A DNA stretch of 64,000 nt, from the IMG/VR virus record IMGVR_UViG_3300046642_000603, positions 1 through 64,000 of that record; one strand, given 5' to 3'. The position numbers were made by a program, and so were the translations under genes. This stretch comes from a virus. Its lineage: Duplodnaviria; Caudoviricetes. Below the pieces are notes generated by a model that saw only the letters and a program-made list of their open reading frames with translations, had not been told where the DNA came from and did not search any database. Shown here piece after piece: positions 5,367 through 63,660 of the stretch; position 1 is the stretch's first letter; each line of letters opens with the position of its first letter.

Positions 5367-5951
5367 ATGCTTACCAACTACGCCGACGTGGCGGCCCTCG
5401 CCGTCGGCCTGGTCCTGCCCGCCATCGTGGCGGTGTTCACCAAGCCGTCGACCAACTCCACCGTCAAGGGCACCGTGCACGCCGTCCTGGCCGTTGCCAC
5501 CGGCTCCCTGGCCACCTACAAGGCCGACCCGTCGAACTTCGTGTGGGCGCCTGCGGTGATCGCCGCGTTCCTGGCCTGGCTGTCCGGCACCACGGCCTAC
5601 CACTCGCTGCTGAAGAAGTACTCGTGGTTCGCCGCGCTCCAGAACCTGTTCGTGTCCGAGGTCGAGAGCCATCTTAATACCGGCGGCGCGGACATCGAGA
5701 GCTACTTCCTGGTGGCGCAGGCGGCCGAGCAGTCCGAGGACGAGCAGGGCATCACCAACGACTTCCCCTTGAGCACCGACATCATCGAGTCCGGCGTGGA
5801 GGAGGCGGTCAAGGCGGCCGAGGAGATCCCCGTCGTCGGCACCGTGGTCCAGAACATCGAGTCGGTCGCGGTCCCGGCCATCGTCACGGCCGTGGAAGCC
5901 GTCCCCGCCGTCGCCGTGCAGTCCAGCGGCCTGGGCCCGAGGGCGTTCTGA
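5367..5951 (+). CDS. Holin-like membrane protein with acidic C-terminal tail
   Basis: Three hydrophobic N-terminal segments; follows tail genes; AAGGA RBS. Confidence 0.55.
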   Translation: MLTNYADVAALAVGLVLPAIVAVFTKPSTNSTVKGTVHAVLAVATGSLATYKADPSNFVWAPAVIAAFLAWLSGTTAYHSLLKKYSWFAALQNLFVSEVESHLNTGGADIESYFLVAQAAEQSEDEQGITNDFPLSTDIIESGVEEAVKAAEEIPVVGTVVQNIESVAVPAIVTAVEAVPAVAVQSSGLGPRAF

Positions 5952-5953
5952 TC

Positions 5954-6238
5954 ATGGACTGGTTCCGGCTGCTGCTGATCGCCTTCGCCACCTTCACCGC
6001 GTGGGAGTGGCTGCGTGACCTCCTGCCCACCATCCCGGCCGCGCTCCAGCCGCTGGTCGTGGTGGGCCTGGCCTACGGAGCGCAGCGTGTTCCCGGCCCG
6101 TGGCTGGCCGCTGTGGCGGCTGCCGGAGTCGTGGCGGTGCTGCACACGCAGGTGAGGGGGAGCGGGGCGGAGACGTCCTCTCTGCGCCTTCCGCGCAGGC
6201 ATCCGGCCACCGGGCGCAGGGTTCCCGACCTGCCCTGA
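5954..6238 (+). CDS. Small membrane protein
   Basis: Hydrophobic helices; follows the holin-like gene. Confidence 0.55.
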   Translation: MDWFRLLLIAFATFTAWEWLRDLLPTIPAALQPLVVVGLAYGAQRVPGPWLAAVAAAGVVAVLHTQVRGSGAETSSLRLPRRHPATGRRVPDLP

Positions 6239-6250
6239 TTGTCAAGCACA

Positions 6251-6289
6251 AGTAAAACCCCGCTAGACAAGCGGGGTTTTCTTGCTTTT
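6251..6289 (+). terminator. Intrinsic terminator
   Basis: AAAACCCCGCT-agac-AAGCGGGGTTTT followed by CTTGCTTTT. Confidence 0.7.
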
Positions 6290-6359
6290 AGAAGCCGTAA
6301 TGGCTAAGGTCTTCCTTGTTGCCAACCACGGCAGCGACCACCACAACACTGGAGCAGAC

Positions 6360-7598
6360 TTGAGCAAGCAGCCCATCACCCTGGCCTTCGCTGGTTCCGC
6401 CGACATCGACCCCGAGAACGTCAAGGACCTGCTCAACGACTGGCTCGGCTTCGGCGACGAGGACAAGGACGGCTTCTTCGAGCCGAGCGACCGCGAGGTC
6501 AACCTGATCTTCCCGGTCACCCGGGAGCACCTGTCCGACGGCCTGGAAGCGGTCCTCGGCTGGGCCGAGAAGGCCGACCTCCCCTACGTCGCCGTCGCGG
6601 ACAACAAGCGCAGCCGCGCCACCGAGCAGATCCTCAAGGACGCCGAAGAGACCGTCCACGTCGCCAACGTCACGGCGGGCGTCGTCGACCTGCTGAAGAA
6701 GGCCGACAGCGTCGGCGACGAGGTCCACGTCATCCTCCTGTGGGGCGACGAGGGCAGCGAGCAGGCCGAACTCCTCCTGGACGCCGCCGACCAGGCGGGT
6801 ATCAAGGCCAAGGACCTCACCGCCGGGCTCGACGACATCAGTTTCGGCGAGCAGCCGCAGGCCGAGGAGCCGGAAGAGGAGCCCCAGCCGGAGCCCGAGC
6901 CGGAGCCCGAGCCGGAGGCCCCCAAGCGTGGCCGTCGCCGTGGCCGCCGTGCTGAGCCGGAGGAGGCCGAGCCGGAGGAGGAGCCGCTGACCGAGGAGGA
7001 CGCGCCGGAGGAGCCCAAGGCCGAGGAGCCCAAGCGTGGCCGTCGCGGTCGCCAGGCCGACCCCGAGCCGGAGCCCGAGGAGCACCCGGTCGAGCAGGAC
7101 ATCCAGGAGCAGCAGGAGGACCTGGAGCAGGAGGTCAACCGCGCCGCGCAGAAGATCCAGCGCGAGACCGCCCCGGTCTCCGACAAGGAGATCGACCTCA
7201 TCCTCATCGGCAACGCTTTGGAGGGTGCCTACAACGCCTTCCGCCTGGAGGACGAGCGCAACGCGGTCATCAACCAGGCCGAGGTACGCCTCCGGCCGCT
7301 GACCGAACTGCTGGCCAAGGCGCTTAATATCGTCGCCGACTCGGTCCACGACAAGGAGGCCGAGAAGCAGGAGCGCCCGGCCGAGAAGAAGGCCGAGGAG
7401 CCGGAGGAGGAGCAGCAGACCTCCGGACGCCGTCGCCGTGGACGCCCGCGCGACGAGAGCAAGACGTTCGCCTTCCTGGTGGACGACGAGGGCAACTACA
7501 GCCGTCGTGGCCGTGGCCGTATCCCGGCCGGACAGACCGTCGTCCACCTGACCCGGGCGGAGATCGAGGAGAAGGGCCTCGAACTCGACTCGGAGTGA
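6360..7598 (+). CDS. Acidic low-complexity protein with RGR/AT-hook-like motifs
   Basis: GGAG then TTG at 6360 (alternative ATG at 6300); EPEP repeats, PKRGRR twice, RRGRPR, RGRGRIP. Confidence 0.7.
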   Translation: MSKQPITLAFAGSADIDPENVKDLLNDWLGFGDEDKDGFFEPSDREVNLIFPVTREHLSDGLEAVLGWAEKADLPYVAVADNKRSRATEQILKDAEETVHVANVTAGVVDLLKKADSVGDEVHVILLWGDEGSEQAELLLDAADQAGIKAKDLTAGLDDISFGEQPQAEEPEEEPQPEPEPEPEPEAPKRGRRRGRRAEPEEAEPEEEPLTEEDAPEEPKAEEPKRGRRGRQADPEPEPEEHPVEQDIQEQQEDLEQEVNRAAQKIQRETAPVSDKEIDLILIGNALEGAYNAFRLEDERNAVINQAEVRLRPLTELLAKALNIVADSVHDKEAEKQERPAEKKAEEPEEEQQTSGRRRRGRPRDESKTFAFLVDDEGNYSRRGRGRIPAGQTVVHLTRAEIEEKGLELDSE

Positions 7599-7712: not shown

Positions 7713-7760
7713 ATGTCGAGCCGACTTAATATCAATCACTTCCTGGCGGTGACTGAGTGA
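7713..7760 (+). CDS. 15-aa mini-ORF MSSRLNINHFLAVTE coupled to the initiator gene
   Basis: ATG at 7713; TGA overlaps GTG start of 7757 (GTGA). Confidence 0.4.
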   Translation: MSSRLNINHFLAVTE

Positions 7761-9150: not shown

Positions 9151-9810
9151 GTGGCGACAGACCCCCGGGTCCACGCCTTGCGGCTCAAGGAGTACAACGT
9201 CCCCGCGCACTACCGGGCCCTGCGGCTTAATACCGTGGCGGACGCCCCTGAGCGCGCCGCCTGCCAGACCTGGCTCGACGAACTGCGCGACCACTACGTC
9301 ACCGACAAGCGACCCCTCACGGAGTACCCCGAGGACTGGGGAGCCATCGGCAAGGGCCTGCTGATCGTCGGCCCTCCCGGCACCGGCAAGACGACCCTCG
9401 CCACCGCCACGCTGCTGGAGGTGTACTACACCCACCGGCTCCCGGTGCACTGGCTGGCCTACGCCGACTTCGTGAAGGACTCCATCGAGAAGATGGGCCT
9501 CCAGGACCGCAGCGAGCCCGAAGCCGTCTCCCGCTGGTGGGAGATCCAGGACAAGATCGTGGCGGCCGAGAAGGCCCCCGTCCTCGTGCTGGACGACGTC
9601 GGCAAGGAGCACCGGACCAAGACCGGGTACGCCGAGGGCCTGCTGGACACCCTGCTGCGCCAGCGGCACCGCGAGGCCCGGCCCACGATCGTCACCTCCA
9701 ACCTCCCGCCCAGGGAGTGGGGCGCCGTCTACAACCCCACGATGGGCTCCTTCATCCAGCAGGCATTCACACAGGTCAAGTTGATCGGAGAGGACCGCCG
9801 TGCAGCATGA
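9151..9810 (+). CDS. dnaC: DnaC/IstB-like helicase loader ATPase
   Basis: Walker A GPPGTGKT, Walker B LVLDDVGKE, PTIVTSN; GGAGG then GTG. Confidence 0.85.
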   Translation: MATDPRVHALRLKEYNVPAHYRALRLNTVADAPERAACQTWLDELRDHYVTDKRPLTEYPEDWGAIGKGLLIVGPPGTGKTTLATATLLEVYYTHRLPVHWLAYADFVKDSIEKMGLQDRSEPEAVSRWWEIQDKIVAAEKAPVLVLDDVGKEHRTKTGYAEGLLDTLLRQRHREARPTIVTSNLPPREWGAVYNPTMGSFIQQAFTQVKLIGEDRRAA

Positions 9811-10027
9811 GCAACTGGCTCTTCCGTTCGAGGACGAGGTTTTGGTGGTTCTCTACAAACGAGAGGCCGAGTCCCGCAGCCTCCACGCGTACTGGGACGC
9901 ACTGGAGTACACCGTCCGCGTCCGCGTGAAGTCCCTCGGCTTCACCATCAAGCGCTCCAGCCGGGAGTCCTGGTACGAGGACGGGCGGCTTAATATCCAG
10001 CTCCGCGCAGAGGCGGAGCGCACCTGA
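9800..10027 (+). CDS. Hypothetical protein
   Basis: 75-aa ORF overlapping both neighbours. Confidence 0.5.
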   Translation: MQHEQLALPFEDEVLVVLYKREAESRSLHAYWDALEYTVRVRVKSLGFTIKRSSRESWYEDGRLNIQLRAEAERT

Positions 10028-11751: not shown

Positions 11752-12028
11752 GCCCCGGCTGGTAGTCCTCGCCGGGAACTTCCGGGAGTTCCAGTTCTGG
11801 TGCAGGGAGAACGAACGCAATCCCCGTGACCGGAATCTGATATACGCCAGCGAATTCCACCGGCTGCGCGGCCTGGGAAAGTTCCGGTACATCACGTACG
11901 GAACCTGGTATTGGCGCCGCGACGCCTGGGAGATCAAGAACTACCTCGACTACCTGGTAAGGAGAGAGCAGTGCCCCGAGCAAAGGCCGGGTGGGACGCC
12001 ATTGGCAACCCCATCCCCGGAAACGTGA
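11729..12028 (+). CDS. Hypothetical protein
   Basis: Aromatic-rich 99-aa ORF between helicase and primase. Confidence 0.45.
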   Translation: MAMSDPSEPRLVVLAGNFREFQFWCRENERNPRDRNLIYASEFHRLRGLGKFRYITYGTWYWRRDAWEIKNYLDYLVRREQCPEQRPGGTPLATPSPET

Positions 12029-12936
12029 CAGCCTGCCTCGACACCCTCGAACTGGAATACAAAGTCCAGGGCGACGAGATTCATATGCCCTGCCCCATGC
12101 ACGAGCAGCGCACCGGAAAGAAAGACGCGCACCCATCCTTTTCCATAAACTACGACGAGGGATATTTCAACTGCTTCTCCTGCGGATACCGTGGCGCGTT
12201 CTGGGTCCTCGTCCGGGACGTCCACGAGATCTCCGAGGCCGACGCCAAGAACTGGGTCCGGCGCAGGGGAGGAGCGGAGAGGGTCCGGAAGTACCTGGAG
12301 AAGAAGAAGGAGCAGCGCGCCGACAAGGCCGACACGACGAAGCAGATCAATGAGGCGTCGCTGGCCCTGTACACCGTGCCTCCGCTGAGTGCCTGCGCCG
12401 AGCGGCTGTTCATGCCGGAGGACGCGGAGGCGTGCGGGGTGCTGTGGGATCCGGCCCGGGACATGTGGATCGTTCCGGTGCGCGACCCGGACACCGGGAT
12501 GCTGTGGGGCTGGCAGGAGAAGAACGCCCGGTACTTCCGCAACCGGCCGCCGGGCATGGCCAAGTCGAAGACGCTCTTCGGGCTGGACACCTACGACGAC
12601 GACGTGGCCGTGCTGGTCGAGTCGCCGCTGGACGTGGCCCGGCTGTGGGCCTGCGGGGTCAGGGGAGGGCTGGCGTCCTACGGCGCCGGAGTCTCCGACG
12701 CGCAGATGGACCTGATCCGCGACCACTTCGACACCGTCATCGTCGCCCTCGACAACGACGAGGCCGGAGCCGAGGCGTGCAAGCGGCTGCTGAAGGAGTG
12801 GACCGGCCGGGGCCTGACCCTCAAGTTCCTCGACTACTCCGTGGCCCCGCTCGCCAAGGACCCCGGCGACATGACCGCCGACCAGATCAAGGCCGCTGTA
12901 CGCGGCGCCTACTCATCCGTCGTTGCACGTTTCTAG
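11971..12936 (+). CDS. dnaG: DNA primase (CHC2 zinc finger plus TOPRIM)
   Basis: CPMH...HPSFSIN...FNCFSCG; VLVESPLD; IVALDNDEAG; KDPGD. Confidence 0.9.
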   Translation: MPRAKAGWDAIGNPIPGNVTACLDTLELEYKVQGDEIHMPCPMHEQRTGKKDAHPSFSINYDEGYFNCFSCGYRGAFWVLVRDVHEISEADAKNWVRRRGGAERVRKYLEKKKEQRADKADTTKQINEASLALYTVPPLSACAERLFMPEDAEACGVLWDPARDMWIVPVRDPDTGMLWGWQEKNARYFRNRPPGMAKSKTLFGLDTYDDDVAVLVESPLDVARLWACGVRGGLASYGAGVSDAQMDLIRDHFDTVIVALDNDEAGAEACKRLLKEWTGRGLTLKFLDYSVAPLAKDPGDMTADQIKAAVRGAYSSVVARF

Positions 12937-12945: not shown

Positions 12946-12990
12946 ATGACCCGGCTTAATACCTGCCCCCGCCAGGGGGACCACCGATGA
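12946..12990 (+). CDS. 14-aa mini-ORF MTRLNTCPRQGDHR
   Basis: AGGAGA RBS, ATG at 12946, ATGA overlap with 12987. Confidence 0.45.
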   Translation: MTRLNTCPRQGDHR

Positions 12991-16179: not shown

Positions 16180-16650
16180 ATGAGCACCGTCGCAGACACC
16201 ATCGACCAGTCCTTCGCCGAACTCGGTGAGCAGTTCTACCCCGGCTCGACGCGCCCCCTGGTACGTCACCGCAACCGCCTTAATACCGAGGCCGCCGCGT
16301 CGGCGGCCGAACCCGGAGCATGGGACGCCAAGCCCCGTAAGTACGTCGTGGCCGGAGTCGAGACGGAGTTCTTCACCGTCGGCGACCTCGCCAAGGCGCT
16401 GGGACGGCAGCCCGTGACCATCCGGAAGTGGGAGCGCGAGGGAGTCATTCCCAAGAGCACCTACCAGTCCCCGGGCAAGGACGGAGACGTACGCGGCCGA
16501 CGCCGCCTGTACATCCGCGAGCAGGTCGAGGGCATGGTCCGCATCGCGCACGAGGAAGGCGTCCTCGTGTCCCACCAGAAGCCCATCAAGGGCACCCGCT
16601 TCACCGAGCGCGTCGTCGCCCTCTTCAAGGCCCTGGCGGGCGACGAGTGA
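16180..16650 (+). CDS. MerR-like HTH DNA-binding protein
   Basis: FTVGDLAKALGRQPVTIRKWEREGVIP...RRLY. Confidence 0.8.
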   Translation: MSTVADTIDQSFAELGEQFYPGSTRPLVRHRNRLNTEAAASAAEPGAWDAKPRKYVVAGVETEFFTVGDLAKALGRQPVTIRKWEREGVIPKSTYQSPGKDGDVRGRRRLYIREQVEGMVRIAHEEGVLVSHQKPIKGTRFTERVVALFKALAGDE

Positions 16651-48877: not shown

Positions 48878-48890
48878 GCCCGGGACATGA

Positions 48891-48932: not shown

Positions 48933-48972
48933 GTGTCCATGAGAACACGCGAAAGCTGCTGAGGCAAACGGG

Positions 48973-49035
48973 TAGACAACGGCTTCCAGAAGCCGTAATC
49001 TCATGCGAGTCAACAACCCGCCCCGCATCAGGAGG
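48973..49035 (+). promoter_or_regulatory. Promoter with palindromic spacer plus leader
   Basis: TAGACA-N17-TAATCT; spacer ACGGCTTC-CA-GAAGCCGT; CAACCCGCCCC...CAGGAGG. Confidence 0.65.
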
Positions 49036-49040
49036 CCCGC

Positions 49041-50708: not shown

Positions 50709-50720
50709 CCCCGGGCATGC

Positions 50721-50760
50721 AAAAGGCCCCCACCGCGTCCCGCTGGCCGGTGGGGGCCCT
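50721..50760 (+). terminator. Terminator (repeat family)
   Basis: AGGCCCCCACCG...GGCCGGTGGGGGCC. Confidence 0.65.
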
Positions 50761-50915
50761 GTTGTGTCCGGCCCCCAGGAGAACACACCCCCGCCGGGGC
50801 CGCTGGTCACAGCTTCATAACGTCTTGTAAATCCATGTGCTCAAAGGGCTTGACAAGGGGTTCCCCCTACGGAAAAGTCAGCGCTCCCACCACACACGTA
50901 CGAAGGAGCGACACC

Positions 50916-52067: not shown

Positions 52068-52117
52068 CCCTGGGTCACAACTCTATAAAGACTTGTCCAC
52101 TGATCCCCGAAACTGGC

Positions 52118-52184
52118 TTTACAAGTCGTAATCGGGGGCTAGTGTGAGCACACAACAACACACCAACCGCCCCGCAACAGGAGG
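52118..52184 (+). promoter_or_regulatory. Promoter plus conserved leader
   Basis: TTTACA-N16-TAGTGT; CCAACCGCCCC...CAGGAGG. Confidence 0.55.
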
Positions 52185-52190
52185 CCCCCA

Positions 52191-52934
52191 ATGCGTACCG
52201 CCAACGTCCCCGCCCTGACCGTCTCGCCCATCCGCGCCATCGTCGAGGGCTCGCGCAACTTCTGCGCCAAGGCCGGACTGTCCACCCGCGACCACTGGGA
52301 CTACTCCCGCGTCATCGTCGCCCCCTCGGCCGTCGAGAAGATCGCCGCCGCGTACGGGGAACTGCCGTTCATCGACAACGCCGCCCCGGCCGCCTGGCGC
52401 GCCATGGCCGAGGGCGTCAAGCGGCAGTACGAGTTCATGACCGCCCCCGCGTCGCGTGGCGGCCTCGGCATCGCCGTGAGCGTCGAGGACGCCGACCCCT
52501 ACGACATGGACAAGCAGGGCACCCGCGCGTTCTTCGAGGACGTCCGCAACGGCCGCATGCGCATCCTGGCGACGGCCGCCACGGGCGGGCACTTCTTCTT
52601 CGACGACGACACGAACGACATGTTCCGCGCCGTGCACGACGTGTTCGGCCACTGCGGCACCGGGCGCGGCGTCGACCGCCACGGCGAGGAGGCCGCGTTC
52701 CGTAAGCACTCCCTGATGTTCTCCCCCCTCGCCCGCAAGGCGCTGGCCACGGAGACCCGCGCGCAGAATCACGCGATGATCGCCGCCGGGGGCGTCTTCC
52801 AGACGCAGAAGGTCGCCGTAATGCCGCACTGGGCCCGCCAGTTCGAGGCGGTCCGCCCGGCCTCGCTCGCGGAGTACCGCGCCACGTTCAAGCAGGCGCA
52901 GAAGATGCACGCCGCGCAGGGCCTCGCCGAGTAG
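52191..52934 (+). CDS. HDxxGH putative metal-binding protein
   Basis: NDMFRAVHDVFGH...GEEAAF..H..MFS..A..ALATETRAQN. Confidence 0.65.
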   Translation: MRTANVPALTVSPIRAIVEGSRNFCAKAGLSTRDHWDYSRVIVAPSAVEKIAAAYGELPFIDNAAPAAWRAMAEGVKRQYEFMTAPASRGGLGIAVSVEDADPYDMDKQGTRAFFEDVRNGRMRILATAATGGHFFFDDDTNDMFRAVHDVFGHCGTGRGVDRHGEEAAFRKHSLMFSPLARKALATETRAQNHAMIAAGGVFQTQKVAVMPHWARQFEAVRPASLAEYRATFKQAQKMHAAQGLAE

Positions 52935-53007
52935 CACCCGCCCCACACCACGGGGGCCGGGGAAGCGCTCCGGCCCCCTCCCACTCACCCCAGGGAGGCC
53001 CCCCCCC

Positions 53008-53439
53008 ATGCTCCGCACCGTCTACGGCTGCCCGACCACCACGCCCCACCCCGCCCACGACTGGACGGCCGCCCGCTTCGGCCGCGTCTCCTGTGACGGT
53101 CTGGAGCCCGTCCCCGCCACCCTCGCGCAGGACCTGACCGCCCGGTTCCCCGGCGTCCGCGTCTCCCTGGAAACGAACGGTGCAGGGTTCGTGATCCTGT
53201 CCGTTCTGATCGTCCCCAAGGGGGAGCGCAACAACGGCTCCGGCTCGGCCGTCATGGGCGAACTGACCGCCTACGCCGACGCGCACGGCCTGCCCCTGGC
53301 CACCACCCCTAGCCCCGACTTTGGCGGGAGCGTCCGGCGCCTCACCGCCTTTTACCGCCGGTTTGGGTTCGCGCCCAACAAGGGACGCGCCCGCGACTAC
53401 GGCACGCAGGAAACCATGATCCGCCGCCCCCAGCACTGA
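53008..53439 (+). CDS. GNAT-family acetyltransferase
   Basis: VPKGERNNGSGSAVM (motif A), RLTAFYRRFGF (motif B). Confidence 0.75.
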   Translation: MLRTVYGCPTTTPHPAHDWTAARFGRVSCDGLEPVPATLAQDLTARFPGVRVSLETNGAGFVILSVLIVPKGERNNGSGSAVMGELTAYADAHGLPLATTPSPDFGGSVRRLTAFYRRFGFAPNKGRARDYGTQETMIRRPQH

Positions 53440-53475
53440 CCAACCAACCCGCCCCACATCAGGAGGACAACCCCC

Positions 53476-53991
53476 ATGCGCATCACGCACACCACCGCCG
53501 CCATGGTCGCCGCCCACCTCGGCGCCCTCACCCATGAGCGCGTGTCCGTCCAGGTCGGCACCGGCCGCGACGGTCACGGGTACCGCGTCACCGTCTCCGC
53601 CTCCCCGCTGGCGCGACAGCTCACGTGGGATTCCGCGCGCAACGAAGGACGCCAGGCCGTCGCGTACATGCTCGGCGCCGTGGACGCCTACACCGACGGG
53701 GAAGCCTTCGACCGTACGCCGTTCCTGGCCGACCTGCGCCGCGTCCTGGCATGGCGCCCCGAACTGGCCGACTCCCTGGAAATGGGCCGCGAGGATGGCA
53801 CCGCCGCCCGCCCCACCACCCCCGCGCCCCTCGGCGTCGGCGACGAATACACCGGCATTGCGACCAACGGTCACCGCATGGTCTACACCGTCGCCGGGTT
53901 CTACGAGGACGGCACGCCCCGCGCGGCCAACGGGAGCGCGTACCACGCCGACACCTGCCCGTGTGTGACCGAAGCTGAGACCGACTACTGA
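53476..53991 (+). CDS. Hypothetical protein
   Basis: Leader motif plus AGGAGG. Confidence 0.65.
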   Translation: MRITHTTAAMVAAHLGALTHERVSVQVGTGRDGHGYRVTVSASPLARQLTWDSARNEGRQAVAYMLGAVDAYTDGEAFDRTPFLADLRRVLAWRPELADSLEMGREDGTAARPTTPAPLGVGDEYTGIATNGHRMVYTVAGFYEDGTPRAANGSAYHADTCPCVTEAETDY

Positions 53992-54010
53992 CCGCCTGAA
54001 CGGCCCTACG

Positions 54011-54052
54011 CAGCCCCTCACCGCCCTTTCTCGGGCCGGTGGGGGGCTTCTT
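54011..54052 (+). terminator. Terminator (repeat family)
   Basis: AGCCCCTCACCG...GGCCGGTGGGGGGCT-TCTT. Confidence 0.6.
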
Positions 54053-54923
54053 CGTGTTCGCCTCCACCACGGGGATACAGGGCCACCCAGGTAATGCCGT
54101 GCTCCGAGTGCCACCGCTTCCCACGGCACACCGCGTGCAGTCCGTCCGTGCACATCTCACACCGCAGCACGCCCGCTGAGTGCTTCAACAGGCACCCGCG
54201 CCAGCCCGGCTGATATCGGGCCAGGGAGCGCCGTACAGAGCTGTTCAGGGCATGCGCTGCGGCGTCCACCGTGGGGAACTCTCCCCATGCCTGGCCGTAC
54301 CCCAACGCGCCCCAAGACATACCTACGCCCATACGTCAAGGGTCCCACCATGCCGACCGCATGGCCAGGGATTCCGGGGCCGGGGGAAGGCTCCCCACTG
54401 CTGCTCTCCCTGGTAGACACAGCACTGACACACGTACGGCCATGCGGTCGCCAGGCTCACAGTCAATACGCCGTAACTCCCTGGCCCCCCTGGTTGTCGA
54501 GTTGCTACAGCGAACCCCACCCCTCCATATGTCGGGGCATATTTGCAGCAACGTAAATCAGCGAATTGGGGTAGTGGCCTCATGAATAACGCCGAATTGC
54601 CATGCATAATATGCGTCGATCCCAGGGGTTGACAGGCCCAAGGGGGTGTGTATGGGTGCTGGGAGTGGTGCAGGTCACACCAAAAGCAAGGGTGCAGATA
54701 CTGAAAGGAAGCGCGAGGCTTGATATTGCCCGGCTCAGGGGATTGACGGGCCGCGTGTCAATAGTGTAGGGCCAATGAATAAATATTCGACCCCCCTACC
54801 CTTAAGTGCAAATTTGCAGAAGCAAAGGGCCTAGACAGCCGCGCAGCGCACCGATTGTGGGAATCGGACAGTGTCACAGTGCCAGGGGAATTCGGGGAAT
54901 TGGGGGCACCGGGAACTGGGGGA

Positions 54924-55115
54924 TCAGGGCTTGCGGGGTTCGAGGAAGACGCCGTAGGGACGCTCCTCGTAGGTAGCGTTGCCGTACCTGCGGAGGGTGC
55001 CGTGCACCACGGCGTTGTAGCCCATGCGGCGGGCGGTGGTCGTCAGCTTCCGGGCTTCGTCGAGTGCAGCGGCTCGGGTGCCGCGCCACATGAGTGCATC
55101 ACGCAGGTTTCGCAT
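54924..55115 (-). CDS. Probable leaderless small protein; the only credible minus-strand gene
   Basis: Minus-strand TTGCCG-N17-TAGCTT ends 6 nt before the ATG. Confidence 0.45.
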   Translation of the reverse strand: MRNLRDALMWRGTRAAALDEARKLTTTARRMGYNAVVHGTLRRYGNATYEERPYGVFLEPRKP

Positions 55116-55173
55116 GTATTTAAGCTAAACGGACTCGGTGATTCCGGCAACGCAAACGAGTTGACCAAACAGC

Positions 55174-55202
55174 TTGACAGGGCGGAGTGTGACCCATAGA
55201 GT
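55174..55202 (+). promoter_or_regulatory. Host-sigma promoter
   Basis: TTGACA-N17-TAGAGT. Confidence 0.75.
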
Positions 55203-55238
55203 TAACCCGTAATTGAGAACGGCGGAAGGGGAGTTGAG

Positions 55239-55436
55239 ATGGCGCAGGGCAAGGTCACCACCGGCTACACGGTCGAGCCCCGCACGGTGGACGGCAAGCG
55301 CATCTTCGCGGTCATGCGGGAGTACGTGTACCGGGGCAGCCCGGGGTCGCAGTTGGTCACGATCTACGGGGACGAGGGCGTCGCCGACAGCATCAGCGCG
55401 ACGCTCAACGTGAACAAGGGATCGGAGTACCGATGA
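55239..55436 (+). CDS. Hypothetical protein
   Basis: GGGGAG RBS after promoter. Confidence 0.6.
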   Translation: MAQGKVTTGYTVEPRTVDGKRIFAVMREYVYRGSPGSQLVTIYGDEGVADSISATLNVNKGSEYR

Positions 55437-55819
55437 GTGACGCACGCGAGCGGTTGCTCGGAATGACGGTCGACCACGCGCACTCGGGCAGGGTTGCATC
55501 CCGCCGGTCGGAGGCCGAGTCGCTGCTGGACAAGGTGATCGCGGCGGAGGCGCGGAGCGCCGAGGTGTACGTCCTGGCCATGAGCGTGGGGCCGGAGGCT
55601 GTGAGCACCGACCTGGAACTGCTCAAGCGGACTGCCGAGAAGAAGGAGGAGTGGGCGGCCTCGGAGTTCGAGTGGCGGCGCGATCCGTACATCGGCTGGA
55701 CCGAGCGCCTGCAACTCCACTACGTCTCCAAGAGCACCGGCCGTTGGAACAAGAGCGGGCACTACATCGACAGGGTGAAGGTGCTGGAAAAGGCCGGGCA
55801 GGCGCAGAGCGCCGAGTAG
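55433..55819 (+). CDS. Hypothetical protein
   Basis: ATGA coupling. Confidence 0.6.
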   Translation: MSDARERLLGMTVDHAHSGRVASRRSEAESLLDKVIAAEARSAEVYVLAMSVGPEAVSTDLELLKRTAEKKEEWAASEFEWRRDPYIGWTERLQLHYVSKSTGRWNKSGHYIDRVKVLEKAGQAQSAE

Positions 55820-55871
55820 GCTTACCGGCCCCAATTTCGATCATTTAAAAAGCGCGGGGAGGGTTTGGAAG

Positions 55872-56594
55872 ATGGCCAAGCTGAAGGATGACGGCGAGTT
55901 CACGGTCGAGGGAACGGTCACCATGTGGCTGCCCCTGGAACCGGAGGAGGGCGAGCGCCTGGAGATCAGTTCCTCGCAGACGATTAGCCCCCTCCAGGTG
56001 TGGGTCAGTGTGCACCCGGAGGACGGGCAGTGGGAGTTCGGCTCGATCATTGTGAAGGGGCGTCTGTACCGGAAGGACAACGCGGTCGGCGGGCGCTGGG
56101 CCGATCGGATGTACTCGGGCCCGCTGGACAAGGACTTCGAGGGACCGGACTGGCTGGTCGCCCTCCTGGAGAGGGAGATCCCCCGGCGCCTGAGCGGCCG
56201 GACGCAGGCGACAGAGGCCGGTTCGTGTGTCTCCCTCACGGACAAGCAGGTCTACGACCTCAACAACCGGCTGAACTCGAACCTCGGACTCCAGCCGACT
56301 CGCAAGGTGCTGGAGGACGTGCTCGGTACGTCGTCGGCGGCCCCGGCCGAGCCGGTCAAGGAGCGCAGCCCTCAGCGACGCTCCTTCGAGACTGCGCTCA
56401 ACGTGCTGCTGATCAAGGAGAACCTGGACGGAGCGGAGTGGGCGCTCCAGCAGATCCTCGACGAGGCCGAGATCCTTGACGGTGGCCCCGGGCTGGGGGA
56501 CACGGCCGTGGCGGAGTACCTGCGCACGCTGGTGGAGAAGGTCAGCGGCGGCCTGGACAAGCGGACGGCCGAGCTGGCCACGCGGGAGAACTGA
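55872..56594 (+). CDS. Hypothetical protein
   Basis: GGGAGG RBS; 240 aa. Confidence 0.6.
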   Translation: MAKLKDDGEFTVEGTVTMWLPLEPEEGERLEISSSQTISPLQVWVSVHPEDGQWEFGSIIVKGRLYRKDNAVGGRWADRMYSGPLDKDFEGPDWLVALLEREIPRRLSGRTQATEAGSCVSLTDKQVYDLNNRLNSNLGLQPTRKVLEDVLGTSSAAPAEPVKERSPQRRSFETALNVLLIKENLDGAEWALQQILDEAEILDGGPGLGDTAVAEYLRTLVEKVSGGLDKRTAELATREN

Positions 56595-56595
56595 C

Positions 56596-56931
56596 GTGAT
56601 AGAGCAGAGGGACCTAGAAGAGCAGCTCGCGCTCGATCTGGCGCCGCACGGCTGGGCGCGGGCGCCCCATACGAACGAGGGCAAACCTGCCGCGCCCGGC
56701 TGGAAGGTCTTCCTCTATAACGGCCTGGGCTACGCGGGCCTGTTGTGGTCGGAGCCGGACGACGGTGAGAACGCCGGGGAGGCGGGGTCCAGGCCCCTCG
56801 ACGACGCCGCGATGCGCATCGCGAACATGACCGCGATCCACGAGGTTCTGCTCAGCAGGGGGTACACGGCGGAGCTGGAGGTCGGACTCAACGACACTCC
56901 GCAGATCAGGATCACGCGCATTCCTGCCTGA
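56596..56931 (+). CDS. Hypothetical protein
   Basis: GGGAG then GTG. Confidence 0.55.
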   Translation: MIEQRDLEEQLALDLAPHGWARAPHTNEGKPAAPGWKVFLYNGLGYAGLLWSEPDDGENAGEAGSRPLDDAAMRIANMTAIHEVLLSRGYTAELEVGLNDTPQIRITRIPA

Positions 56932-57007
56932 CGTCGTACGCGCAGCGTGCGCTGAACAAGGTTGTGCAGGCGCTGGTGGAAGGGAGTTAGTGGATATGGG
57001 GGGCGTT

Positions 57008-57391
57008 ATGAGCAAGAGGGTATTGGCGGCTGTGGTCGTGCTGTTCGCGGTCGCCGGGTGTGGTGGGGCCGGGGGCTCGAAGGGGTCTGCGAAGCCGAGC
57101 GCGTCCAAGTCGGGGTACACCAAGGCGGTGGAGACCTGCTTCGTCGAGGTGATCAAGGCGGTGGACCTGACCTTGAGTACGGCCCAGGGTGCTCCGTCCG
57201 GGGTCGAGACCGAGGAGGAGTTCGCGGACTTCGGGGTGAAGGCTCAGGGGACGCCGACCTGGGACATCTACAAGACGTACGCGGACATGGGTGCCCGGGA
57301 TCTGGCGAAGGGGTCGTACGCCACGGCGACCGACGCTGTGGCGGCGTACGCGCCCTCGGTGAAGTTGGAGTGCGTGCGGGCGTACGGCTGA
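57008..57391 (+). CDS. Putative lipoprotein
   Basis: MSKR, hydrophobic stretch, VAGC lipobox. Confidence 0.65.
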   Translation: MSKRVLAAVVVLFAVAGCGGAGGSKGSAKPSASKSGYTKAVETCFVEVIKAVDLTLSTAQGAPSGVETEEEFADFGVKAQGTPTWDIYKTYADMGARDLAKGSYATATDAVAAYAPSVKLECVRAYG

Positions 57392-57405
57392 CGTAGGGCT
57401 GTAGG

Positions 57406-57501
57406 AGGCCCCTGCCTGGGTGACCGGGTGGGGGCCTTTTTCATGCTTGGAAAGCTGTATGCGGATACCGCTTGACAGTGAATGATCCACGGGGATAGCG
57501 T
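57406..57501 (+). repeat. Terminator-promoter cassette, copy 1
   Basis: AGGCCCCTGCC...GGGTGGGGGCCTT.TTCATGCTTGGAAAGCTGT then TTGACA-N18-TAGCGT. Confidence 0.7.
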
Positions 57502-57557
57502 GTGGATTACGCGGACAGGGGGTCCGCAGGAACGATCCAGAAAGTGGGGGGACACTC

Positions 57558-58106
57558 GTGTCTCAGCCTTACGGTCAGACGCCGCAGCAGCCCTACGGCC
57601 AGATGCCGCAGCCTTACCCGCAGCCCCAGCCGCCGAAGAAGAAGAGGGGCGTGCTGAAGTTCGGCTGCCTCGGGTTCGTCGGCATCATCGTCATCGCCGG
57701 TATCGCGTCTGCGGGGGGTGGTGGTAAGGGCGACAACTCGTCCTCCTCTAGCACCTCGTCCTCCTCCAGCGCCTCCTCGAAGGCCCCGGCGCACAAGTCG
57801 GCGCCCCAGAAGAACACGGTTGACGCCTTCAAGGCGTACGCGAAGAAGAACGAGTCCTCGCAGACCAGCGCTGCTGTGCAGCACGTCACGAAGGTGCAGG
57901 GAGGGGACTCGCAAAACGACATCCTCGACGCCGCCGACGTCTACACCAGTTACTCCGGCGGCCTCATGAGCGCCGACACCGGGAAGGCCAAGTTGATCGC
58001 CTCGGCGTTCGCGGACTTCCAGAAGAGCCGGGGCAAGTCCAGCAAGAACGGTCTGGTGACGGTCTACGGCGCGGACGGAGACCTCCTCAGCAACGGTAAG
58101 TACTGA
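57558..58106 (+). CDS. Single-pass membrane protein
   Basis: PQ-rich N-terminus, KKKR followed by TM, Ser-rich linker. Confidence 0.7.
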   Translation: MSQPYGQTPQQPYGQMPQPYPQPQPPKKKRGVLKFGCLGFVGIIVIAGIASAGGGGKGDNSSSSSTSSSSSASSKAPAHKSAPQKNTVDAFKAYAKKNESSQTSAAVQHVTKVQGGDSQNDILDAADVYTSYSGGLMSADTGKAKLIASAFADFQKSRGKSSKNGLVTVYGADGDLLSNGKY

Positions 58107-58173
58107 CGATCGCGGCGGCTCGCCGGGAGGACCTTGGGGGAGGACCGCCTCGGCTGATATGACCACGTGAAGA

Positions 58174-58264
58174 AGGCCCCTGCCCTGACGGGTGGGGGCC
58201 TTCTTCATGCTTGGAAAGCTGTTTGATGAAACGCCTTGACGAGACCTATCAACTCCGATAGATT
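58174..58264 (+). repeat. Terminator-promoter cassette, copy 2
   Basis: Same hairpin and TTCATGCTTGGAAAGCTGT, then TTGACG-N17-TAGATT. Confidence 0.7.
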
Positions 58265-58315
58265 CTCATTACTGCTTCGGAAGCCGTAAGTACGAAGCCG
58301 TAATGAGGAGGAAGC

Positions 58316-58570
58316 GTGGCGCAGAAGAGGGCACCGTTCAAGGCCGGGGACCGCGTCTCGATCATGTACGACCACAGCCTGGCCCCGGGGATCGTGCTCA
58401 AGGTCGAGCAGGGTTCCTCCGGTTCCTGGCGTGGTGACGTCCGGACCGCTGACGGCGTCCTGGAGAACCGCTCCCTCCACTCGGACTACGTCATGAAGGA
58501 GTCCCGCTTGGAGCCGGGGACGCGGACGGCATGGGCGTCGGCCTGGGAGCGCCTGGAGAGCAGGGGCTAG
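58316..58570 (+). CDS. Small SH3/KOW-like protein
   Basis: FKAGDRV...GIVLKV; GAGGAGG RBS. Confidence 0.55.
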   Translation: MAQKRAPFKAGDRVSIMYDHSLAPGIVLKVEQGSSGSWRGDVRTADGVLENRSLHSDYVMKESRLEPGTRTAWASAWERLESRG

Positions 58571-58674
58571 CTGATCCTCCGGTCCGGTCCGTCGGCGGAT
58601 AGGGGTCGACGGGCCGGGCCGGGTCAGGTACATTACGTCTTCCAGAAGACGTAAGGAGCAAGGGGGAGTGAGAG

Positions 58675-59037
58675 ATGAACATCCCGATGACGGACGATCC
58701 GAGGTTCGAGCGCCTGCCGAAGTGGGTCAGGGACCGCGTCCACGCGAAGGACGAAAAGATCCAGCGCCTGGAGCAGGAGCTGGCCACGGCCCGCGCGCTG
58801 CTGAACGAGGGGCCGGAGGACGCCACGGTCCGCGTCGACCCCTACAGCGCGAACCGGCGGGCGCTGCACGGCAACCCGACCATCGAGTTCCGGTGGAAGA
58901 AGCCGGGCGAGAAGTTCTGGACGTACTTCCTGGTGCGGCTGGAAGAGGACCGGCGGCTGGAGATCCACGCCAGCAGCAGCGTCGCGATCCACCCGTCGTC
59001 CGGCAACTCGATACGGGCGGAGGTCGTCGGCCGCTGA
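58675..59037 (+). CDS. Hypothetical protein
   Basis: RFERLPKWVRD coiled coil; RBS. Confidence 0.65.
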   Translation: MNIPMTDDPRFERLPKWVRDRVHAKDEKIQRLEQELATARALLNEGPEDATVRVDPYSANRRALHGNPTIEFRWKKPGEKFWTYFLVRLEEDRRLEIHASSSVAIHPSSGNSIRAEVVGR

Positions 59038-59093
59038 CCCTGAACGACTTCGAGCGACGAGTCGTCAACCGCTACCGCCAGAAGGAGAAGAAG

Positions 59094-59270
59094 ATGAGCA
59101 GCCCCCTGACGGTCGACTACCTGGGGTTCATCGAGAGGTTCAGGGCGGGCCCGCGCCAGCAGCGCATCCGCATCCGGCCCGAGACGCTTGCTCAGTGTGA
59201 GCAGTCTGTGGGGACGGCGGCCTACGTCCGCTGGTACCTCGGTCAGCTCGCTGAGCGGCTTAATACCTAG
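59094..59270 (+). CDS. Small hypothetical protein
   Basis: AAGGAG RBS; ends LNT-stop. Confidence 0.5.
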   Translation: MSSPLTVDYLGFIERFRAGPRQQRIRIRPETLAQCEQSVGTAAYVRWYLGQLAERLNT

Positions 59271-60455: not shown

Positions 60456-60920
60456 ATGACGCTTAATACCCAGGCCCACGAGGCCATCGAGATCACCCTG
60501 GACGATGCGAAGACGCTGCTGGCCCGCGCGGTCGAGGAGCGGGGCGCCGACTACCAGTACAAGATGCTCACGATCGAGTTGGAGCCGGGCCGCCAGGAGT
60601 CGCTGTGCGCCTACTTCGACCCGCAGACGAAGGTGCCGTCGTGCATCGTCGGCCAGGTGCTGTCCTACAAGGGCGTCACGTTCGACGACATGGCCGCCAA
60701 GGACAAGAACGTCTACGCCTCGGCGGGGACGCTGATCGACACCGCGTTCATCAAGGCCGACAGCGAGACGCGGGCGCTGCTGGAGGCGGTGCAGTCCGAG
60801 CAGGACTCCGGTATGCCGTGGGGCCAGGCCGTCGAAGAGGCGCTGTCGACGTACGAGGCCGTGGCGCAGGGCTACGAGGAGGAGGGTTACGACGACCCCT
60901 CCGAGGCGTACTGGTTCTGA
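60456..60920 (+). CDS. Hypothetical protein
   Basis: AVEERGADYQY...CAY...PSCIVG...Q..QD.G..WG.A. Confidence 0.7.
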   Translation: MTLNTQAHEAIEITLDDAKTLLARAVEERGADYQYKMLTIELEPGRQESLCAYFDPQTKVPSCIVGQVLSYKGVTFDDMAAKDKNVYASAGTLIDTAFIKADSETRALLEAVQSEQDSGMPWGQAVEEALSTYEAVAQGYEEEGYDDPSEAYWF

Positions 60921-61726: not shown

Positions 61727-61884
61727 CATGTTCGCGCAACCCCCTAGGAGTGTGATCCACGCCATACGGGTTCAGTTGAACAGATTCACGATTACGGGCT
61801 TGAGATTACGTCTTCTTCGTTATAGGTTTCTCGATGTCGGGGTCGCCCCCGGCACCACAGAACCGCAGAGCCGAGGAGCACCGC

Positions 61885-62298
61885 ATGAGCACCACCGCCA
61901 CCGACGAGCAGCGCCGCCTCTACATCCGCGAGTTCCTGAACAACCAGGGACACCATGGCCTCGGTGCGGTGCTCGCGGAGATCAACGACGGCGACACCTC
62001 GGACGACTACCTCGATTTCGGCGCCACCCTCCAGATCCAGGACTGCTCCCGCAGCGTGACCCTCGACTTCGGCGTCTACGGCCAGACCGGCACCGAGGAA
62101 GACCGTGACCAGCTCCGCAAGGACCTGGAGAACGCCCGCGCGAAGGCCGACCGCCTCAAGGGCGCCATCTACCTCTTCATCGAGAAGTTGGACGAGGCCC
62201 TGAGCGACGTGGAGACCGACCTCGACAAGCGCGACCGCCGCGCCGCGAAGAAGTCCAAGAACAAGCGCAAGAACAAGAAGGCCGCGAAGAAGGGCTGA
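61885..62298 (+). CDS. Hypothetical protein
   Basis: GAGGAG RBS; REFLN...LQIQDCSRSVTLDF. Confidence 0.7.
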   Translation: MSTTATDEQRRLYIREFLNNQGHHGLGAVLAEINDGDTSDDYLDFGATLQIQDCSRSVTLDFGVYGQTGTEEDRDQLRKDLENARAKADRLKGAIYLFIEKLDEALSDVETDLDKRDRRAAKKSKNKRKNKKAAKKG

Positions 62299-62300
62299 AC

Positions 62301-62531
62301 ATGACCGCGAAGCAGGACGACGACCGCCCCCTCATGGGACTCGGTCATCTGGTGATCCCCAACGTCAGCGCCGCGAAGGACTGGCTGGAGCGCCAGGGCA
62401 AGAAGCGCGAGGAAGCCGTCGAGATCGTCGTCCTTGAGACCAAGAAGTGGTTCGCCATCGACCACCTCCCCGACGAGTTCTACGAGACCTTCGCCAAGCG
62501 CGTGGTCGCCGCACTCGACCAGCGTCTCTGA
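62301..62531 (+). CDS. Hypothetical protein
   Basis: Operon spacing. Confidence 0.55.
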   Translation: MTAKQDDDRPLMGLGHLVIPNVSAAKDWLERQGKKREEAVEIVVLETKKWFAIDHLPDEFYETFAKRVVAALDQRL

Positions 62532-62553
62532 CCCACCACACCCCGGAGGACAC

Positions 62554-63660
62554 ATGACCAACCTCATGAGCATCATGTCCCAGAGCCTGCTCAAGGAAAT
62601 GCTCGACAAGGGCTACGTCCGCAGGCAGAACCACCCCGACGCGTCGCTGGCCATCCTCAACTACACGAACAAGGCCCAGTACGAGGGCATGTGGAACGAC
62701 GTCACGAAGAAGACGCGCGGCCTGATCGTCGACAGCGTCACCAACGAGGTCATCTCCCGCCCGTTCGAGAAGTTCTTCAACTGGGACCAGGTACCCGAAC
62801 TGCACTCCACGCTCCTGGCGCAGCCGGTCGAGGGATACGTGAAGTGGGACGGCTCTCTGGGCGTCGGCTACACGCTTAATACCGGGGAGTTCCGCATCGC
62901 CACGCGGGGCTCCTTCACCAGCCCCCAGGCCCTGCACGCCACCGCGCTCGTGCAGGAGCGGTACCCCGAGTTCGAGCCCATCCTCGGCCTGACGTACCTC
63001 TTCGAGATCGTCTTCCCGGCCAACCGCATCGTCGTGGACTACCAGAGCCTGGACGACCTGGTGCTCCTCGCCGTCATCGACACCGCGACCGGCAAGACGC
63101 TCCCCTTCGGCACCTACGACTGGCCCGGCCTGGTCAATGAGCCGGTCGGCTTCAAGACGATGCCCGACGTCCTGGACTACATGCGCCACGTGCAGGAGAA
63201 GAACCTGGAGGGCTTCGTCGTCCGCTTCCCCTGGAGCGACACCCGGGTGAAGTTCAAGTACGACGAGTACGTCCGCCTGCACCGCATCCTGACGAACGTC
63301 TCCACCCTCTCCGTGTGGGACGCGCTGGCCAACGGGCAGGGCATCGACTCCTGGATCGACCACGTGCCGGACGAGTTCTACACCTGGGTCCACCAGCAGG
63401 TGTACCGCCTGGAGGGTGACTTCGCCCGCGAGAAGGCCCAGATCATGGACGACTACGCCTGGATCCTCAAGCGGTTGCGGCGGCCGGAGACGGACGCACA
63501 GAAGCGCCGCAAGGAGTTCGCGCTGCTCGCCCAGGAGACGCCGTACCCGGGTCTGCTGTTCCGCATCTACGGCGGCAAGGACATCACGGCCGACGTCTGG
63601 AAGCGGGTCCGGCCGACGTACGAGAAGCCGTTCCAGACGCTCTCGGAGGATGCGGCCTGA
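62554..63660 (+). CDS. RNA ligase (T4 Rnl1-like)
   Basis: LNYT...RGLI...RPFEKFFN, KWDGSLG, ATRGSF, FEIV, EGFVV, KFKYDEY. Confidence 0.88.
   Translation: MTNLMSIMSQSLLKEMLDKGYVRRQNHPDASLAILNYTNKAQYEGMWNDVTKKTRGLIVDSVTNEVISRPFEKFFNWDQVPELHSTLLAQPVEGYVKWDGSLGVGYTLNTGEFRIATRGSFTSPQALHATALVQERYPEFEPILGLTYLFEIVFPANRIVVDYQSLDDLVLLAVIDTATGKTLPFGTYDWPGLVNEPVGFKTMPDVLDYMRHVQEKNLEGFVVRFPWSDTRVKFKYDEYVRLHRILTNVSTLSVWDALANGQGIDSWIDHVPDEFYTWVHQQVYRLEGDFAREKAQIMDDYAWILKRLRRPETDAQKRRKEFALLAQETPYPGLLFRIYGGKDITADVWKRVRPTYEKPFQTLSEDAA

Follow-up and report, generated by a model that had tools for sequence, protein, structure and literature searches.

The sequence analyzed here ("the window") comprises positions 1–64,000 of a viral contig of 75,903 bases (IMG/VR record IMGVR_UViG_3300046642_000603, G000; Duplodnaviria, Caudoviricetes), and the element under study is a short, asymmetric and AT-rich string, CTTAATAYC, which recurs on the + strand of this high-GC DNA. 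One contig of a Streptomyces sp. carries a relative of the virus as prophage. Within the 10.7-Mb genome to which this contig belongs, 37 of the 62 matches to CTTMATACC are gathered on the prophage contig (36 forward and one reverse), the other 25 showing no strand bias (13 forward, 12 reverse). Hence, the virus is a temperate Streptomyces myovirus of about 105 kb, and the motif belongs to the phage. Complete relatives have a size of 105–110 kb and add genes for terminase, portal, capsid, sheath, a large serine recombinase and a tyrosine integrase. Close annotated phages were not found, the only matches to the reductase gene being from distant Streptomyces and Pseudomonas phages.

Gene Content and Location of the Motif Copies

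Almost all genes of the record are encoded on the + strand. Scans against Pfam and PHROG families assign a baseplate J protein and tail fibers with carbohydrate-binding modules, an HNH/HTH protein (one of two HNH proteins encoded by the phage), an IstB-like ATPase, a DnaB-like helicase, a DnaG-type primase, an SNF2 helicase, a family A DNA polymerase, a class II ribonucleotide reductase, RecA, a WhiB-like protein, a Cas4-like exonuclease, ThyX, a dNMP kinase, a GH25 lysin and a TGT/DpdA-like protein. The latter, a 512-aa protein encoded at 39937–41475, matches phrog_887, queuine tRNA-ribosyltransferase (E 2e-78), the family of the phage DpdA enzymes placing 7-deazaguanines in DNA; a family for preQ0 synthesis did not turn up among the proteins scanned. 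An RNA-repair module consists of an RlaP-family nucleotidyltransferase, an Rnl1-type ligase and PNKP (window 60605–63660 and G000 63416–64876), and a second RNA_ligase-family gene is located at 26550–27362. In the complete relative G001, gene 89172–90140 takes the position that RlaP has in G000, and G006, a relative lacking the motif, has no homologue of the ligase, PNKP or this G001 gene. Downstream of the window, a tRNA cluster (G000 67113–68279, L094 7113–8279) encodes Pro(TGG), Phe(GAA), Leu(CAA) and Asn(GTT).

The motif copies of the window, together with a motif-free block and the primase gene, are located as follows. Gene calls are based on GC content at third codon positions (GC3) and on the longest open reading frame (ORF), so that the codon numbers given hang on uncertain start positions.

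5673..5681, + strand: CTTAATACC at codon 130 of ORF 5286–5951 (221 aa, no Pfam or PHROG family)
7323..7331, + strand: CTTAATATC, 89 codons before the stop of ORF 6282–7598 (438 aa, no family)
7725..7733, + strand: CTTAATATC at codons 5–7 of a 15-codon upstream ORF, 7713–7760
9226..9234, + strand: CTTAATACC at codon 67 of the IstB-like AAA+ gene 9028–9810
9989..9997, + strand: CTTAATATC, 10 codons before the stop of ORF 9800–10027 and 38 nt before ATG 10027
11911..12936, + strand: DnaG-type primase gene, where fixed differences separating the CTTAATA and CTTCATA clades form their sharpest island; a candidate reader (lead)
12955..12963, + strand: CTTAATACC, three codons after ATG 12946, just past the primase stop and 32 nt before ATG 12987
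16279..16287, + strand: CTTAATACC at codon 34 of the 156-aa MerR/HTH_17-like ORF 16180–16650
17028..17036, + strand: CTTAATACC at codon 49 of ORF 16884–17699 (271 aa, no family)
17818..17826, + strand: CTTAATACC at codon 14 of the family A DNA polymerase gene 17779–19758; CTTCATACC at this place in clade B
19804..19812, + strand: CTTAATACC at codon 16 of ORF 19759–20226; no counterpart in clade B
21273..21281, + strand: CTTAATACC at codon 196 of the class II ribonucleotide reductase gene 20688–22649; His in clade B
22787..22795, + strand: CTTAATACC in the RecA gene 22679–23983, three codons after ATG 22778
23963..23971, + strand: CTTAATACC, four codons before the RecA stop and 20 nt before ATG 23983
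24407..24415, + strand: CTTAATACC, 15 codons before the stop of ORF 24116–24460 and 47 nt before GTG 24454 of the WhiB-like gene
27213..27221, + strand: CTTAATACC, 47 codons before the stop of the RNA_ligase-family gene 26550–27362
29147..29155, + strand: CTTAATACC, 10 codons before the stop of the dNMP kinase gene 28514–29185 and 35 nt before GTG 29182
32110..32118, + strand: CTTAATACC at codon 244 of ORF 31381–33135 (584 aa, no family)
35005..35013, + strand: CTTAATACC at codon 210 of the GH25 lysin gene 34378–35415
36076..36084, + strand: CTTAATACC at codon 18 of ORF 36025–36417
36676..36684, + strand: CTTAATACC at codon 57 of ORF 36508–37500
37662..37670, + strand: CTTAATATC at codon 64 of ORF 37473–38333
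39695..39703, + strand: CTTAATACC at codon 248 of ORF 38954–39910
40216..40224, + strand: CTTAATATG at codon 94 of the TGT/DpdA-like gene 39937–41475
41736..41744, + strand: CTTAATACC at codon 35 of the ORF from ATG 41634 to TAA 42017; final copy before the motif-free block
41745..59258: motif-free block of small genes without family, GC3 mostly 0.85–1.0, hypervariable between relatives
59259..59267, + strand: CTTAATACC followed by TAG at the end of ORF 58668–59270; first copy past the block, 38 nt before ATG 59297 of the DUF2637/HTH_17 gene
60462..60470, + strand: CTTAATACC at codons 3–5 of ORF 60456–60920
62875..62883, + strand: CTTAATACC at codon 148 of the Rnl1-type RNA ligase gene 62434–63660

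Enrichment, Strand Bias and Reading Frame

A preliminary description of the window, made from the sequence alone, had listed 27 copies of CTTAATA, and a string count returned exactly these positions, all on the + strand with none on the − strand, as well as the same division into 22 CTTAATACC, four CTTAATATC (7323, 7725, 9989 and 37662) and one CTTAATATG (40216). Its estimate that fewer than one copy per strand is expected by chance likewise holds, as dinucleotide-preserving shuffles (n = 100) gave a mean of 0.27 and a maximum of two copies. Over all 75,903 bases of the record, 30 forward but no reverse copies of CTTAATAYC are present, while the motif read backwards as a control is absent from both strands. 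With 26 forward and no reverse copies, CTTAATACC is the top-enriched 9-mer of the record, at about 345 times the zero-order expectation, and each of the 31 occurrences of TTAATA falls within the motif. Its sequence logo can be written as G-CTT-A-ATA-(C>T)-C, followed by a weak T/G, with flanks otherwise unconserved.

For the codon-preserving control that had been suggested in the preliminary description, synonymous codons were shuffled among the 73 + strand gene calls of the window (300 rounds), in which CTT is used 64, AAT 42 and TTA only two times. The shuffled sequences retained a mean of 5.08 copies versus the 27 observed, these five being the copies outside the calls and hence unshuffled; inside the gene calls, 22 copies thus compare with an expectation of about 0.08, and the minus strand of the shuffled sequences held a mean of 0.06. 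Since the 22 in-gene copies far exceed what synonymous shuffling yields, CTTAATAYC is under strong purifying selection at the nucleotide level.

As had been described, the motif is read in frame. All 22 copies inside gene calls, that is, within the confident genes, have the frame CTT-AAT-ACC, and the remaining five (7725, 12955, 19804, 41736 and 59259) are in frame with smaller ORFs, which are putative genes. Frame 0 dominates in all clades of related phages, including clade B introduced below, where no other frame makes a stop. This preference requires no special explanation, however, because it follows from the supply of tripeptides: the G001 proteome contains Leu-x-Thr 153 times, versus a single Phe-Ile-Pro and a single [APST]-Ser-Tyr-[LPHQR]. 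In the same genome, Leu-Asn-Thr is spelled CTTAATACC in 28 of 29 cases, and clade B has three to five Leu-Asn-Thr tripeptides in GC-rich codons. The Leu-Asn-Thr at 16830 of the window is indeed encoded by CTC AAC ACG, as noted before. Within genes, the positions of the motif showed no difference from those of the Leu-x-Thr background (Kolmogorov–Smirnov p 0.08–0.8 in four genomes); against this background, an apparent bias of sites toward gene ends was not significant and was discarded. Eight of the 31 copies of the record lie 20–47 nt upstream of a start codon, and others are found at codons 3–18 or mid-gene. Some copies reside in short upstream ORFs that are kept across clades and have a stop overlapping the next start. 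In upstream ORF 7713–7760, for example, the TGA shares bases with GTG 7757, at which the HNH/HTH_36 initiator-like gene starts, and clade B keeps this ORF in length and position with another peptide, carrying CTTCATACT.

Two statements of the preliminary description had to be modified. The motif is not genome-wide, as it is missing from positions 1–5672 and 41745–59258 of the window, and copies do occur in gaps of the gene map, those at 7725, 12955 and 41736 sitting between confident genes.

Concerted Exchange of One Base Between Sister Clades

With the polymerase as query, 47 related loci were retrieved. CTTAATA is present at similar density and never on the opposite strand in 24 of them (clade A), while 18 contain none or one CTTAATA and instead show CTTCATACC, encoding Leu-His-Thr (clade B); the other five, which are distant, have neither CTTAATA nor CTTCATACC. 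All 42 classifiable contigs are purely of one type, and ten further whole contigs are each pure as well, with 130 forward sites of the one and 107 of the other type. Retention of the motif in relatives, a check proposed in the preliminary description, was thus seen in 24 related contigs, and the two variants are found at matching places. When comparing the window with L025 and with L026, 12 of the 14 sites in the aligned range coincide. In the complete genomes G001 and G002, 32 of the 40 G001 sites align without gaps, and 26 of these 32 show the other variant in G002. Accordingly, homologous sites of the sister clades have jointly exchanged C for A, or the reverse, at the fourth base of the motif.

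The corresponding replacement of Asn by His affects the polymerase, the reductase, RecA, the kinase and other proteins. This exchange at homologous sites of unrelated proteins bears out the earlier proposal that the signal resides in DNA or RNA and not in the peptide. Sites found only in clade A face CTGAACACC in clade B, and those found only in clade B face CTGCACACC in clade A, both strings representing the matching tripeptide in GC-rich codons; the extra sites of each lineage have been made from existing Leu-Asn-Thr or Leu-His-Thr by synonymous changes. Complete relatives (five genomes) carry 40–47 copies each. In a relative of 68% identity, the form STTCATACN is found nine times forward and never in reverse within 47.5 kb, and for this reason the C form is probably the older of the two variants. 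No motif was found in a complete relative of 48% identity.

Single CTTAATACC copies amid CTTCATACC occur in two phages, namely, G010 (L034 16405) and the prophage (G011:C18:136147), and may be a leftover or an intermediate of the switch.

Orientation and Distribution Relative to Host-Type Promoters

The 40–47 copies per genome are located on the coding strand, and their orientation tracks gene direction. Exactly one full reverse copy is present in six of the eight genomes that include the integrase region, lying 231 nt (G001) and 266 nt (G002) upstream of the only large reverse-strand gene, which encodes the serine recombinase. The reverse copy of G003 precedes another reverse-strand ORF (542 aa), at a distance of 30 nt. 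This copy bears each clade's own variant, having switched between A and C with the rest. Spacing in the complete genomes is no more regular than random (coefficient of variation (CV) 0.87–1.18), with a median of 1.0–1.5 kb and gaps of 9–19 kb; a regularity seen in the fragment G000 (CV 0.61, p 0.003) was not found in four complete genomes and was dropped.

Neither the tail and baseplate region nor a block of 15–19 kb contains the motif. In each of five genomes, this block holds six to eight of the nine to 12 strong + strand sites of the host promoter type (TTGACA-N16–18-TAnnnT), an enrichment with binomial p values of 9e-3 to 7e-5 in genomes that are related to each other; as the block is defined by its lack of the motif, only the promoter enrichment constitutes an independent test. 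The block of the window has seven of the 12 promoter-like sites of the record (42103, 43315, 44920, 52118, 55174, 57472 and 58236). Among the 20 proteins scanned in 41745–59258, no family was found save DUF7239 and the HTH_17 gene at the end, and the genes of this early block contain only two AAT and four CAT in 4,269 codons. Hence, the motif is confined to the phage, follows gene orientation and is excluded from the block carrying host-type promoters.

The promoter-like sites of the block sit in intergenic gaps, and further ones are found at 15145, 15610 and 61800. Several of those in the block precede a similar leader (..ccaaccgcccc..aggagg..ATG). In G008, nine copies of a conserved leader, ..CGCCCACNNAAGGAGCGCACCATG, stand before successive genes at 28362–36416 (reverse-complement coordinates of L080–L082).

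Candidates for the Reader of the Motif

A phage-encoded and clade-specific factor must read CTTAATAYC in the direction of transcription; that it is phage-encoded follows from a difference in specificity between sister phages whose hosts are organisms of one kind. The signal takes effect either during transcription or at the RNA level. Scanning about 100 proteins of the window and of relatives did not reveal a phage RNA polymerase, a sigma family or an unknown protein of polymerase size. Sigma70_r2 (PF04542) was found in none of five genomes, and PF08281 gave only weak, sub-threshold matches to r4_2 helix-turn-helix (HTH) regions. Possible pairing of the motif with rRNA or a guide RNA was considered by eye, the record having no copy of its reverse complement. 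An Atlas search returned nothing for the 584-aa protein and a metallophosphoesterase-like neighborhood for a 413-aa protein. A 164-aa protein which seemed specific for clade A was rejected, as clade-B homologues exist.

The proteins with most clade differences, of 64 and 95 aa, occur only in this phage group and have no relative of known structure by sequence. For the 64-aa protein (G000 70344–70538, L094 10344–10538), a beta-beta-alpha-beta fold is predicted with confidence (predicted local distance difference test (pLDDT) 87), whose best but weak match is the RNA-polymerase-binding YkzG (epsilon subunit; E 0.17). This family forms a graded series instead of two types and was therefore discarded as reader. 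In the 95-aa protein, the proportion of fixed clade differences is highest (14 of 69 columns), a value inflated by a motif copy in the protein's own tail; its predicted fold is alpha-beta3-alpha, with weak matches to 1whz and HicA (6g26_E; E 0.16–0.34).

The primase gene represents a further lead. When comparing 12 with 12 sequences, 32 fixed nucleotides are located in 12.0–13.0 kb, versus none in 11.0–12.0 and none in 13.0–13.5 kb, and 25 of 341 primase residues are fixed-different between the clades, nine of them in residues 96–133 at the end of the zinc ribbon. The adjoining helicase gene has almost no fixed clade differences. In a genome scan of seven versus seven sequences, the primase provides the top 500-nt window with 30 fixed differences, the scan covering 30–97 kb of G001 with at least four clade-A genomes and the structural genes and right end with two to three. 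Comparison of two RNA runs (X23 and X24) with positions 40001–60000 was uninformative either way, giving only low-depth contigs of 90–95% identity and no start or end places.

Discussion

Tentatively, CTTAATAYC may be an orientation-dependent binding site of the stoperator kind, controlling the transcribing RNA polymerase, a possible but by no means assured reading that draws on comparison with related systems. The motif would act in cis on non-early genes and be read along transcription; a protein would bind it and, as at a roadblock or silencing site, would stop or otherwise steer RNA polymerase, and the one-base switch would mark a change of immunity or specificity type. This is suggested because copy number, asymmetry, orientation and clade-specific consensus match those reported for stoperators. 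These comprise 20–30 sites oriented with transcription, with a consensus differing between subclusters, according to one report (PMC6550527); in others, reversal of a stoperator is stated to abolish repression (PMC9283540) and Streptomyces phage R4 to possess stoperators (PMC10276819). Like cluster A mycobacteriophages (L5 and Bxb1) and R4, the phages studied here are temperate actinobacteriophages with dozens of short, asymmetric and transcription-oriented sites whose consensus differs between related lineages, here by A or C at position 4. The temperate lifestyle, evident from the prophage, the serine recombinase and the tyrosine integrase, and the complementary territories of motif and host-type promoters were counted in favor of a stoperator-like function as well.

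Several results weigh against a stoperator-like function. L5-type repressors also have operator copies, whereas no motif copy is found at a promoter here; the copy nearest to any of the 12 promoter-like sites is 367 nt away, and none overlaps. Unlike stoperators, the motif has no copy in the early block, lies in frame inside coding sequences and not in short intergenic spaces, and has a core of 9–10 instead of 13 bp. A relative of L5 gp71 or R4 gp29 was not found by tblastn in seven genomes (nothing at E below 0.38), although one related at the level of fold may exist, and an elongation block at the motif is putative. Moreover, the available regulator candidates do not fit: neither the DUF2637/HTH_17 protein nor the WhiB-like protein varies with the A/C switch, and the XRE/DUF5753 (one fixed difference) and HNH/HTH_36 proteins (three fixed differences) show no covariation with it. 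Instead, another element is associated with the promoters. Of the 35 copies of the hexamer CGTAAT/ATTACG, 12 fall between −45 and +75 relative to promoter-like sites, at nine of the 12 promoters (binomial p 1e-12), for example, at 15598, 15626, 42095, 44913, 52127, 61791 and 61805; the hexamer is rarer in the clade-B genome G002. Possibly, it serves the true immunity repressor as operator, in which case the repressor reads something other than CTTAATAYC.

The XRE regulator mentioned above (HTH_31 plus DUF5753) is encoded on the minus strand at G000 71617–72716 (L094 11617–12716) and paired with a DUF397 protein, a pairing common in Streptomyces. No motif is found on either strand within this gene pair.

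Among the alternatives, a phage-specific promoter, that is, a single −10-like box read by host RNA polymerase together with a phage factor, is rather unlikely. It would explain why host-type promoters occupy the motif-free block and the motif covers the remaining genome at similar density, why all copies are co-oriented with genes with the reverse copy upstream of an isolated reverse-strand gene, and why eight copies closely precede start codons. T4 late promoters consist of a single box, TATAAATA, and promoter specificity has changed between the sister phages T7 and T3; as in these systems, a short box in one orientation recurs about every 2 kb in non-early genes, early genes have host promoters, and sister phages differ at few promoter bases along with the reader. 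Nevertheless, the doubt already expressed in the preliminary description about a single-box promoter appears fair, given the many copies just after start codons. Conserved copies are found at polymerase codon 14, three codons after an ATG in RecA and at codons 3–5 of ORF 60456, others are mid-gene or far from the next gene, and within-gene positions show no difference from the Leu-x-Thr background. In addition, G001 has no + strand copy upstream of terminase, the logo shows no conserved spacing to anything downstream, and, unlike in T4 or T7/T3, neither a phage polymerase nor a sigma factor was detected, the weak r4_2 HTH matches being all that the scans returned. A role in translation is unlikely, too. 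Here, CUU-AAU-A in clade A and CUU-CAU-A in clade B would be slow or slippery ribosome sites needing a phage tRNA for decoding, namely, tRNA-Asn(GUU) in clade A and an 86-nt tRNA-His(GUG) in clade B, and the TGT-family enzyme and the RNA-repair module may act on the same tRNAs. CUU is the P-site codon of classic +1 frameshift sites (prfB and Ty1), AAU and CAU belong to the codons of the tRNA set modified by TGT, and TTA codons gate proteins of Streptomyces via bldA; similar to these cases, rare in-frame codons in a fixed context meet a phage tRNA varying by clade. Consistent with this, every copy is in frame with an ORF, even with 15-codon upstream ORFs conserved between clades, a TGT-family gene and tRNA-Asn(GTT) are present, the early block is poor in AAT and CAT, and tRNA-His(GTG), which has a long extra arm, is added in five of six clade-B but none of four clade-A genomes (Fisher p 0.048, considering genomes that include the tRNA region). 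The genomes are related, however, so that this association amounts to one or two evolutionary events, and G003 has 41 copies without tRNA-His. Leu-x-Thr supply already accounts for the frame, host tRNA-Asn and tRNA-His already decode these codons, and the phage tRNAs may just compensate for codons imposed by a DNA signal. Unlike at bldA-controlled or frameshift sites, an exact 9-mer is conserved and not a single codon, a context of 9–10 nt being unexpected for a rare-codon effect, and at 5673 and 7323 the +1 frame has, as judged by eye, no stop within 40 nt. If translation were nevertheless the level of control, middle and late proteins as well as genes behind motif-bearing upstream ORFs would be made only after decoding is reprogrammed, and the clade switch between CAT and AAT would be a switch of the reader tRNA.

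Quite improbable is a function in priming, with the DnaG-type primase initiating at the motif on the lagging-strand template and the variable base corresponding to the uncopied 3′ base of the initiation triplet. Fixed clade differences are most sharply concentrated in the primase gene, which has clean flanks to either side, the median motif spacing is 1.0–1.5 kb, and the coding strand would be the lagging-strand template if forks run co-directionally with transcription. To our knowledge, though, a nine-base primase site is without precedent, and the large gaps and irregular spacing, an early block free of the motif though holding conserved genes, and a reverse copy going with gene direction are not expected from it. 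Furthermore, G006 encodes a homologous primase (44% identity) and lacks the motif, the scan covered 60% of the genome, and the gene is fast-evolving generally, its corrected excess being modest (fixed/(fixed + polymorphic) 0.087 versus 0.169 for a neighboring gene). RNA processing is very unlikely, although the motif resides on the transcribed sense strand and RlaP, the Rnl1-type ligase, PNKP and a second ligase-family protein are encoded, so that a phage endoribonuclease would cut CUUMAUACC and repair enzymes would possibly reseal it. Cutting its own essential coding sequences would be costly for the phage, and the 95-aa protein, which could be proposed as nuclease from its modeled HicA/1whz-like fold, has no Pfam match besides this weak similarity and a difference count inflated by its own motif copy. 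Finally, the preliminary description had suggested a selected, oriented genome tag; selection on an oriented nucleic-acid signal is borne out, whereas the tag itself, be it a Chi, KOPS, packaging, nick-site or self-mark signal, is highly improbable. One-strand polarity and strong enrichment would agree with it, as would the genes for RecA, a Cas4-like exonuclease and two HNH proteins. Chi and KOPS/SRS are host-owned, strand-skewed 8-mers following replication or translocation across the whole replicon; the motif is similarly over-represented, strand-skewed and tolerated in genes, but it is phage-only, patchy and follows gene direction, with two large motif-free regions, irregular spacing and a reverse copy linked to a reverse-strand gene. 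The HNH/HTH protein shows no variation along with the switch, and the host, for which depletion had been considered, is at chance level outside the prophage contig, neither enriched nor specially depleted.

In the titles and abstracts retrieved, the motif strings are not described in a phage context, the papers containing them being unrelated and probably referring to oligonucleotides. Whichever mechanism holds, be it in-gene silencing roadblocks, a new promoter class, tRNA-gated translation or sequence-specific priming, a regulatory code is overlaid on the protein code in a high-GC phage. About 26 homologous sites in unrelated essential genes, each altered by one base and one amino acid, have switched in concert, which makes a clean natural experiment and exposes the co-evolution of a cis signal and its reader. 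As cultured Streptomyces lysogens exist, this can be tested at the bench.

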